A stretch of 64,000 nt of DNA from Escherichia phage vB_EcoM_DalCa, in the sequence record NC_054908.1; one strand, 5' to 3'. A model generated the notes under the pieces. The model was given only the letters and a program-made list of their open reading frames with translations, did no database searches and was not told where the DNA came from. The position numbers were made by a program, and so were the translations under genes. Each line of letters starts with the position of its first letter. The stretch's first letter is position 1. Shown piece by piece: positions 6,636 to 7,793 of the stretch.

Positions 6636-6663
6636 TTTATTCTCCTCAGTAGTAGATAGGGTA

Positions 6664-6693
6664 ATAGTATCACTACCCTATCTAAAAGTAAAC
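6664..6693 (-). promoter_or_regulatory. early promoter (-35 GTTTAC, -10 TACTAT) overlapping an inverted repeat
   Basis: minus-strand GTTTAC 6693-6688, TACTAT 6669-6664; inverted repeat TAGATAGGG/CCCTATCTA spans the core. Confidence 0.55.
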
Positions 6694-6927
6694 TTATTTT
6701 TTACGAAAAATTGATTTATTTTCTGCTGCCCATTTTTCAATAACTGCAGCAGGACCAGTAACAACAATTTTATCACCGTAATCTTCTGCGGCGAGTTGAC
6801 CGAAATTATCTAATGCATCACGAAGAACTCCATGAGGCATTTCACCCATTTTATCTTTCTTGCCAGTGTAAATAAACTCAACTTTTACATCAGCAGTTTC
6901 AGCAATAAATTCTTGGTAAGTTTTCAT
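6694..6927 (-). CDS. internal protein (ip-family) with canonical capsid-targeting sequence
   Basis: N-terminus MKTYQEFIAE from ATG 6927 equals the T4 IPIII-type CTS with gp21 cleavage motif IAE; lies in the ip position upstream of 57B. Confidence 0.7.
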   Translation of the reverse strand: MKTYQEFIAETADVKVEFIYTGKKDKMGEMPHGVLRDALDNFGQLAAEDYGDKIVVTGPAAVIEKWAAENKSIFRKK

Positions 6928-6961
6928 TTTGATTTCCATTTGGTTTTGTTTTGATAGGGTA

Positions 6962-6991
6962 ATAGTATCACAACTAAAACCCTATGTAAAC
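6962..6991 (-). promoter_or_regulatory. early promoter (-35 GTTTAC, -10 TACTAT)
   Basis: GTTTAC 6991-6986 and TACTAT 6967-6962; part of a 30-bp block repeated at 7317-7346. Confidence 0.55.
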
Positions 6992-7003
6992 AACTTTGTG
7001 AAA

Positions 7004-7261
7004 TTATTTTAAATCTTCTAATCGTTTCTTCATCTTAGAACCATTTTTAGCAATTTCTCCTGCATCGGAGCATAATGCTAAAAGTGCTTTAACTTTAGTT
7101 TGGTCTCCTTTAAAAGATGAAGGATCGACCGCAGCAGCAAGTTCTTTAATACGAGAGAAAAGACGCTCAGCTTCAGCTAAAGCCATTCCAAGCTTTACTT
7201 CCATACCGTGGGAAGATTCAGTGATAGTAGTTTTTGTAGCAAACTCTTTGAAAGTTTTCAT
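7004..7261 (-). CDS. hypothetical small protein (85 aa), possible internal protein
   Basis: N-terminus MKTFKEFATKTTITE loosely CTS-like; flanked by the same promoter cassette as the ip gene. Confidence 0.55.
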   Translation of the reverse strand: MKTFKEFATKTTITESSHGMEVKLGMALAEAERLFSRIKELAAAVDPSSFKGDQTKVKALLALCSDAGEIAKNGSKMKKRLEDLK

Positions 7262-7292
7262 TTTTATTTTCCTAATTAATTTTGATGAGGTA

Positions 7293-7322
7293 ATAGTATC
7301 ACTACCTCATCAGTATGTAAAC
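7293..7322 (-). promoter_or_regulatory. early promoter (-35 GTTTAC, -10 TACTAT)
   Basis: GTTTAC 7322-7317 and TACTAT 7298-7293. Confidence 0.55.
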
Positions 7323-7334
7323 AACTTTGTGAAA

Positions 7335-7793
7335 TTATTTTAAATCATCTGCCCAATCGAGTTTAAGAGGCTCTTTGTATTCACGGTCAAGTACAACCGG
7401 AATTTGTACATCACCGCTAAATGATAAGGGCCCAACATTATAAGACAATGTTATATGCGGTGTGTAATCATCAAAATCGTGTGTAGCACCTAGTGCCCGC
7501 GCATACATGTGTCGACAGCGCAGATATTCAGAATCTAGCACAAGTACAAGAGTCGATCCATCTTGTGTTTTCCACACTTCTAAATGTCCAGAAGAAGCTA
7601 CTTCAAAACTTCCACTCGATGGAACATATGGAACATTTACTCTTGAATAACATATAGTCGAATGAATTTTTTCTCTAGGAACTGGATTAGGAACACGTAA
7701 AGAGCGCTGGAGTTCTTCCAGCGCGTCAAGTGTTAATTCTGAAAACTTAGCTGCTACATAAAGACCCGTTGAAAAGTCTTTAAATTCCATCAT
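7335..7793 (-). CDS. 57B: gene 57B protein, 2H-phosphoesterase-like
   Basis: 152 aa; H-x-T-x motifs (HSTI, HITL); position upstream of 57A as in T4. Confidence 0.8.

Follow-up and report, generated by a model that had tools for sequence, protein, structure and literature searches.

In T-even phages the region between gene 57B and the tRNA genes holds a family of internal protein (IP) genes with a conserved N-terminal leader. According to later papers (PMC2839356, PMC4122927), Repoila, Tetart, Bouet & Krisch (EMBO J 1994) described at these loci a flanking T4 early promoter with an overlapping AT-rich stem-loop, proposed that ip genes are shuffled within and between phages, and suggested that shuffling of the IP palette could alter host range. 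Here we analyse the corresponding locus in a 64,000-nucleotide stretch of Escherichia phage vB_EcoM_DalCa (NC_054908.1), referred to below as the window, and the promoter-hairpin modules that separate its genes. The window genome is a Tequatrovirus, and the feature is a rediscovery of elements that are already known: going by the accounts in the later papers, on which the match rests, nothing essential differs, and the window holds one arrangement (ip5 plus ip6) of the locus. In all probability this is an ipI-type IP locus made of one-gene cassettes with early-promoter/hairpin modules, the cassettes being exchanged through sequences that the modules have in common.

The closest described counterparts are the promoter-early stem-loops (PeSLs) defined by Arbiol 2010 (PMC2839356), which treats the T-even IP elements as analogues, not homologues, and describes them as having T4 early promoters and AT-rich stem-loops that are weaker, and as a possible source of the plasticity of the IP locus. 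The PeSLs of RB49/phi1, PST/T4 and nt-1/KVP40 share their layout with the modules of the window, namely an upstream stop codon in an A/T-rich region, a -35 and a -10 box, a stem-loop between the boxes or over the -10, a Shine-Dalgarno (SD) sequence and a start codon. They also cluster in hyperplastic regions, as the modules do, and flank small variable open reading frames (ORFs), with indels and replacements at the elements. The promoters of all three modules fit the PST/T4 PeSL consensus TTTACW-N17-TAYWAT (Comeau 2014, PMC4122927). The RB49/phi1 PeSLs, in contrast, have near-perfect sigma-70 boxes, G/C-rich stems, and demonstrated terminator activity and mini-circles, whereas the modules of the window have T4-type boxes, AT-richer stems and no U-run. 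The linear deletion product expected from recombination between neighbouring elements does occur naturally, in phages of the ZN18 type discussed below.

Two other systems invite comparison. Like integron cassettes, the genes of the locus are adaptive (in this case anti-defence), come as single ORFs arrayed beside a fixed platform, and have at their borders imperfect inverted repeats that are kept in structure more than in sequence; the excision of circles is conceivable as well. The locus differs in lacking an integrase, in having one promoter per cassette, and in having junctions that are explained by plain homology and also lie outside the hairpin. PHROG and Pfam scans for recombinase families gave no match among six ORFs of 5762-7793, a search that covered this locus without 57A, and the ip array is not a member of the integron family. 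Lambdoid morons (Hendrix et al. 2000, as described in PMC2839356) resemble the cassettes as accessory genes with their own promoter, and possibly a terminator, placed between conserved genes, but moron flanks are described there as not conserved and not thought to mediate mobility, whereas the conserved flanks in the window appear to be the sites of exchange.

Promoter-hairpin modules between 57B and trna.4

Every gene of the 57B-to-tRNA locus is encoded on the minus strand, in the order gene 1 (dNMP kinase), 57A, 57B, ip5, ip6, trna.4, trna.3, trna.2 and 11 tRNA genes. The ip array has 57B, annotated as such in T4, T2, RB32 and RB51, as its fixed upstream edge and trna.4 as its fixed downstream edge, with the following features.

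7335..7793, minus strand: 57B (= Acb1, anti-CBASS phosphodiesterase); ORF, Pfam PF23474 Acb1 (E 2.7e-60), PHROG 755
7314..7346, minus strand: exact 33-bp direct repeat, copy B (57B tail, A/T-rich stretch, -35); match extension of the block
7280..7350, minus strand: module 3, before ip5 (repeat search; promoter scan, TTTACA-17-TACTAT with TG; hairpin folding; core search), with -35 GTTTAC at 7317-7322, TG at 7300-7301, -10 TACTAT at 7293-7298, core GTGATACTATTA at 7291-7302 and arms at 7283-7292 and 7303-7312
7004..7261, minus strand: ip5 cassette gene, 85 aa; ORF, PHROG 3499 'internal head protein' (E 1e-49), Ip5 annotated in RB32, RB51 and T2
6983..7015, minus strand: exact 33-bp direct repeat, copy A (ip5 tail, A/T-rich stretch, -35); match extension of the block
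6949..7019, minus strand: module 2, before ip6 (repeat search; promoter scan; hairpin folding; core search), with -35 at 6986-6991, -10 at 6962-6967, core at 6960-6971 and arms at 6954-6960 and 6979-6985
6694..6927, minus strand: ip6 cassette gene, 77 aa; ORF, PHROG 8111 'internal virion protein' (E 1e-52), 78% identical to VR26 Ip6
6651..6721, minus strand: module 1, before trna.4 (repeat search; hairpin folding), with -35 at 6688-6693 immediately following the ip6 stop codon, -10 at 6664-6669, core at 6662-6673, and an inverted repeat TAGATAGGGTA/TACCCTATCTA at 6653-6663 and 6674-6684 (11 nt, 100% complementary, 10-nt loop)
6450..6635, minus strand: trna.4, a 61-aa predicted membrane protein; ORF, PHROG 1692, T4 annotation Trna.4

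A preliminary description of this DNA had pointed to an identical 30-bp block at two gene junctions. The block is indeed exact at 6986-7015 and 7317-7346, and 100 shuffles gave no match; the full exact repeat is 33 bp long and forms one end of a module of ~71 nt, of which a repeat search found three copies. Reading the minus strand (GAT TTA AAA TAA ... GTTTAC) confirms the further claim that the block covers a -35 hexamer together with the D-L-K-stop codons of 57B, whose C-terminus ...WADDLK* ends within copy B, and of ip5 (...RLEDLK*). On that strand each module runs from the last codons and stop of the upstream gene through an A/T-rich stretch, the -35 GTTTAC, a 17-nt spacer and GTGATACTATTA to the 5' untranslated region (5'UTR), SD sequence and ATG of the next gene. 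The element GTGATACTATTA is an invariant 12-nt core (TG, one base, then the -10 TACTAT), and an inverted repeat surrounds the -10 in all three modules. Identity is 86% between copies 2 and 3 and 61% between copies 1 and 2, with exact shared stretches of 33 nt between modules 2 and 3 and of 14-19 nt around the -10 core for all module pairs. The exact core occurs 3 times in the window, always within the ip locus. In every ip5-bearing phage examined the block after ip5 is the same as that after 57B (33 nt identical), so it has long belonged to the ip5 cassette and is no special trait of the window genome. An exact-match scan of IMG/VR for the block returned 3 contigs only.

The third copy that had been reported at 63803 is a promoter with a partial match, but only 16 nt are shared with the block. 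This promoter belongs to gene 30.8, lies outside the ip array and forms no significant hairpin (z -0.59).

63779..63817, minus strand: partial block copy, the early promoter of gene 30.8; 16 nt (63802-63817) in common with the block, downstream ORF Pfam PF06019 Phage_30_8

By sequence the modules contain early promoters, TTTACA-17-TACTAT at 7321..7293 and 6990..6962, both found with a sigma-70 scan, and TTTACT-17-TACTAT at 6692..6664; the scan requires at least 9/12 hexamer positions, and the promoter of module 1 (8/12 by hand count) is thus unlisted. All three modules have a TGn-extended -10, GTGATACTAT (TG, one base, -10), and the 22 nt upstream of the -35, TTTAAAATAATTTCACAAAGTT, are 82% A+T and UP-like. 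These are the elements of a T4-type early (sigma-70) promoter: a -35, ~17-nt spacing, a -10 of the form TAnnnT, TGn and an A/T-rich upstream sequence, in line with the -35/TGn/-10/UP make-up of T4 early promoters (PMC2988021). Because they match this make-up as well as the PST/T4 PeSL consensus, the modules would be expected to fire as immediate-early promoters. A literature search found no mapped T4 transcript starts at ipI/57B.

Folding predicts an RNA hairpin of -17.4 kcal/mol (z -4.87) in module 3, -18.1 (z -4.53) in module 2 and -18.5 (z -4.39) in module 1, with 0/200 shuffles as stable. As in PeSLs and IP elements, the stems are more stable than chance and overlap the promoter boxes. The promoter at 6664-6693 had been said to sit inside an inverted repeat, and this holds for its -10 (6664-6669), which is enclosed, but not for its -35 (6688-6693), which lies outside. 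The arms vary by lineage and yet remain complementary, being GATAGGGTA/TACCCTATC and GATGAGGTA/TACCTCATC in the window, GATAGGACTA/TAGTCCTATC in mogra, GATAGAACTA/TAGTTCTATC in phiD1 and ATGGGATA/TATCCCAT in VR26, while PKO111 has GGGTT/AACCC, a compensated change. When 18 distinct modules of three genera (Tequatrovirus, Mosigvirus and Gaprivervirus), hybrids included, are aligned, 87% of cells are paired and 6/12 pairs have two-sided changes, a score reached by 0/500 shuffles. When partners are slid by 1-2 columns as a control, pairing falls to 33-41%. Two other promoters of the window, 2209-2237 (minus strand; AGGCTCAT/ATGAGCCT, z -4.0) and 63388-63415 (minus strand; GGTACAGG/CCTGTACC, z -5.05), have inverted repeats around the -10 with unrelated arms; those at 2546-2574 and 54845-54873 have no such stem. 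Since the arms covary and the same architecture recurs with unrelated arms at two other promoters, the hairpin structure appears to be under selection.

No U-run follows the stems (the sequences after them are CUACUACUGAGG, CAAAACAAAAC and AAAAUUAAUU) and a terminator scan lists no site in the modules; we therefore rejected a classical intrinsic (Rho-independent) terminator. As the right arm immediately follows the -10 hexamer, and transcription would start ~7 nt from the -10, only read-through RNA from upstream would hold the whole hairpin, which would fit the role of an insulator or 3'-end protector. Mismatches in the stems (14 G.U versus 9 A.C) give an excess too small to tell the acting strand. 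On the coding strand upstream of the array there is a single late-promoter motif (TATAAATA), at 8376-8383 (minus strand) within gene 1. If internal proteins are also made late, transcription would have to cross 57A, 57B and the module hairpins, which argues against the hairpins being strong terminators. Elsewhere in the window a terminator-like hairpin at 2699-2723 (minus strand), CCCTATC-TAAAT-GATAGGG followed by CTTTTT, lies downstream of an ipIII-like gene (2732-3295), and its arms are the ip-module stem motif GATAGGG/CCCTATC in reversed order with a T-run added.

The IP capsid targeting sequence is a 10-19-residue N-terminal propeptide, MKT(Y/F)(Q/K)EF..., ending in an L/I-X-E motif cleaved by gp21 (PMC9026906), and both leaders conform to it: that of Ip5, MKTFKEFATKTTITE, has the gp21-type motif I-T-E at residues 13-15, and that of Ip6, MKTYQEFIAE, has I-A-E at residues 8-10. 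The gene at 6694..6927 does, as had been proposed, start with MKTYQEFIAE and differ from T4 IPI in its mature part; similarity is confined to the first 14 residues, and the gene is ip6, not ipI. Ip5 likewise resembles T4 IPI in the leader only, and past the leader no similarity links Ip5, Ip6 and T4 IPI to one another. Neither Ip5 nor Ip6 is covered by a Pfam family. The GenBank names ip5, ip6, ip7 and ip9 appear to stem from the survey by Repoila and colleagues. The only IPs with known targets are T4 Ip1, Ip2 and Ip3, each of which disarms a specific GmrSD-type restriction enzyme (PMC12373910).

Cassette content and junctions in related phages

We took the 57B-trna.4 locus from 18 phages. Between 57B and trna.4 they carry the following genes.

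T4 and slur08: ipI
phiD1: an ipI-like gene
RB51, KMB39, EO1 and pSs-1: ip5
T2: ip5 and ip7
RB32: ip5, ip9 and ip7
The window and ph0021: ip5 and ip6
teqdroes: ipI and ip6
ZN18: ip6
RPN226: ip9
S143_2: ip9 and ip7
mogra: ip7 and ip9
F13076: ip9, ip7 and another gene
VR26: four genes
PKO111 (Klebsiella phage): none

The alignment of T-even ip loci against the repeated blocks that had been suggested was made by pairwise BLAST of the window with 17 related loci. Between 57B and trna.4 all alignment ends fall at 6645-6700, 6891-6951, 7009-7019 or 7226-7241, that is in the modules, their 5'UTRs and the first ~12 leader codons, with 0 in mature coding bodies. As in hyperplastic regions, insertions, deletions and replacements between relatives end at the modules. 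Relatives with the same gene content and without breakpoints at the blocks would have spoken against exchange; what we see instead is that the ip sets differ and that the breakpoints lie at the modules. The GenBank record of RB32 itself bears the remark 'flanked by 43 bp direct repeat' at ip7 and ip9.

A sharper test was made with a synthetic junction, in which window positions 6800-7015 were joined to 7347-7560, dropping 7016-7346 (331 bp, ip5 plus one repeat copy). This predicted deletion exists: the junction matches at 100% over all 430 nt, as a single piece, in vB_YepM_ZN18, OES_C-2, ECO07P4, ECO07P5 and DCP2, and at about 97% in RB18, slur07, KIT03, JK1 and others. ZN18 has one copy of the block, with flanks 99.4% and 97.2% identical to the window, and the two genomes thus form a near-isogenic natural pair whose indel is bounded by the 33-bp repeat. 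The equivalent form without ip6 is that of the RB51-type phages, in which the junction lies within 19 nt, GTGATACTATTACCCTATC, common to modules 1 and 2. Together with the breakpoints, the ZN18-type junction supports the earlier proposal that promoter-bearing flanks serve as a substrate for the exchange of ip genes.

A table of 37 module occurrences (31 distinct sequences) leads in the same direction. The intergenic layout, with the upstream stop in the A/T-rich part and the downstream SD sequence and start codon at the 3' end, holds in this table, and the core GTGATACTATTA is nearly invariant across it. The left half of a module (upstream-gene tail, A/T-rich stretch, -35 and left arm) always accompanies the upstream gene, and the right half (right arm, 5'UTR, SD sequence and first leader codons) accompanies the downstream gene with few exceptions. 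Hybrid modules with mismatched arms are found at ip5>ip7 of T2 and at ip9>ip7 of RB32, F13076 and S143_2, and fold at -2.6 to -8.1 kcal/mol compared to -11 to -18.5 for matched modules. The most plausible reading is that crossovers inside the core left them behind. Crossovers also occur in the leader codons, since RPN226 couples an ip9 body with an ip7/ip5-type leader.

Two distant loci show how the array may vary. In PKO111 (1480-1640, minus strand) 57B is followed by one promoter-hairpin module and then by trna.4, an empty site; a ~71-nt island (the right half of the module and the start of trna.4) is 93% identical to the window, and the rest of a 2.4-kb query has no match in these Klebsiella phages. 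In VR26 (Gaprivervirus; locus 1744-2930) the first three genes (an unnamed ORF, ip9 and ip5) lie ~8 nt apart with no module between them, and modules stand only before ip6 and trna.4. The ip arrays are therefore not always organised as one promoter per gene.

The mechanism that we favour would be as follows. The array would consist of one-gene cassettes, here ip5 and ip6, set between the fixed 57B/acb1 and trna.4, each preceded by a ~70-nt module. Each would be transcribed on its own, as the consensus match suggests that each has its own T4-type immediate-early sigma-70 promoter. In read-through RNA the inverted repeat would fold into a 12-14-bp hairpin just 3' of the upstream stop codon, most likely attenuating read-through or protecting the 3' end of the upstream mRNA. 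Because stretches of the modules and the 5'UTR and leader codons are common to all ip genes, recombination can delete, insert or swap whole cassettes and leave the neighbours unharmed. The route would be homologous recombination by the phage, or annealing or slippage between direct repeats; we infer general recombination or short-repeat annealing as the enzymology, and likewise the direction of each event. Such annealing is reported to get by with <50 bp of homology (Singer 1982, cited in PMC2839356). The outcome would be an altered set of injected anti-restriction proteins carried by the phage. The ip genes encode proteins that are injected with the DNA, and the modules would let phages swap counter-defence genes as ready-to-express units. 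Such swapping would shape host range, and matters for choosing or engineering therapeutic T4-like phages. To the known picture the present data add a near-isogenic natural pair (the window and ZN18) whose members are set apart by ip5 and exactly one repeat unit, the segregation of module halves with neighbouring genes, and covariation support for the hairpin.

Several points weigh against this account. Alignments must end where similarity ends, so the clustering of breakpoints is partly built in, the near-isogenic ZN18 pair apart, and it was for this reason that the synthetic junction was made. For the junction expected from module 1 x module 3, with both ip genes deleted, none of the 15 best-ranked matches listed gave an unbroken alignment, and PKO111, a Klebsiella Jiaodavirus phage, was the one phage in which a site without ip genes was observed. 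At 14-33 nt, the stretches in common are on the short side for homologous recombination to be efficient. That T-even-type modules act as promoters and that their hairpins have a function is predicted from sequence, terminator activity having been shown only for the G/C-rich RB49/phi1 PeSL (PMC2839356), and the modules of the window have neither a U-run nor a site in the terminator scan. Nor is the hairpin essential, since hairpin-less hybrid modules persist in several phages.

Alternative explanations

The repeats might instead be convergent copies of a strong early-promoter consensus, kept by selection for transcription and with no role in cassette exchange. Promoters of the form GTTTAC-N17-TGn-TAnnnT do lie elsewhere in the window (2546-2574, 54845-54873, 63388-63415 and 63779-63807), some with CACAAAGTTGTTTAC-like upstream sequence, but they have only ~16 nt in common with the block, and the 12-nt core is exact only within the ip locus. 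A promoter consensus has no need of the three sense codons and stop of two unrelated genes that the 33/33 identity spans. Hybrid modules exist, natural indel junctions fall in the block or core, and the ZN18-type junction strongly disfavours convergence, which we consider extremely improbable. Descent by tandem duplication is somewhat easier to entertain, though still unlikely: ip5 and ip6 would be diverged duplicates whose promoter, UTR, leader and 3' tail are kept alike by gene conversion, the repeats being relics of the duplication. The two genes do share the promoter core and the MKT(Y/F)(Q/K)EF leader, with 77% identity over 44 nt across their starts. The mature parts of Ip5 and Ip6, however, are unalignable, and ip5 has the same 3' block as 57B, a non-ip gene. 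The order of ip genes also varies (ip7-ip9 in mogra but ip9-ip7 in RB32, S143_2 and F13076), as do their combinations (ip6 alone, ip5 alone, ipI plus ip6), and exchange is therefore required. Duplication is compatible with module-borne exchange as an account of remote origin only.

A different question is whether the modules are targets of structure- or site-specific recombination in the manner of integrons, with endonuclease VII, for instance, or some unknown phage protein recognising and cutting the -10 hairpin or cruciform, and the cassettes moving as small circles. Such a process would suit single-gene cassettes that adjoin a fixed platform gene, a hairpin kept by covariation and not by sequence, and the several crossovers placed in the hairpin loop, which is the -10 core; moreover, mini-circles of RB49/phi1 PeSLs have been detected and a stem-binding recombination protein proposed (PMC2839356). 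Plain homology explains the hybrids, however, since no invariant stretch is longer than the hairpin loop itself. The junction of the ip5 indel falls outside the hairpin, within the 33-nt block, and crossovers are also found in leader codons (RPN226). The ORF list and the PHROG and Pfam scans revealed no integrase or recombinase at the locus, where none is known, and the authors who defined PeSLs call the T-even IP elements weaker, AT-rich analogues (PMC2839356). Short-homology recombination accounts for all junctions seen, including those outside the hairpin. We thus judge site-specific recombination very unlikely, and there is equally little chance that the covarying hairpin actively signals structure-specific recombination, which would make the ip array an integrase-less, integron-like system for exchanging injected anti-defence genes.

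Neighbouring genes and other variable sites

Positions 6000-8200 of the window are 100% identical to Salmonella phage UAB_60, and the arrangement of ip5 plus ip6 is common to about 90 further records at >=99% identity. Close relatives have the two ORFs annotated as ip5 and ip6. The swappable ip (anti-restriction) cassettes lie directly downstream of the counter-defence gene 57B/acb1 and, since the latter is Acb1 (PF23474), the two may be regarded as a small anti-defence islet.

The region on the other side of the array is also variable. The gene trna.3 (window 6052-6450, minus strand) is missing in T2, F13076 and RPN226, where window positions 6060-6446 are gone, and its central part (6232-6399) cannot be aligned with RB51-type phages. 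These breakpoints lie away from the promoter modules, and therefore not all of the plasticity of the region is module-mediated. An extra ORF of 516 nt (RB32ORF135c type) is present in RB32, KMB39, ph0021 and phiD1 at window 5770/5781, between tRNA-Gln and trna.2, where the window has none; T2 has an ORF of similar size between the same two genes. The 11 tRNA genes of the window (4647-5664, minus strand) are uninterrupted, and in the clusters of several relatives a ~609-nt endonuclease gene, mostly annotated as a homing or HNH endonuclease, replaces some of the tRNA genes.

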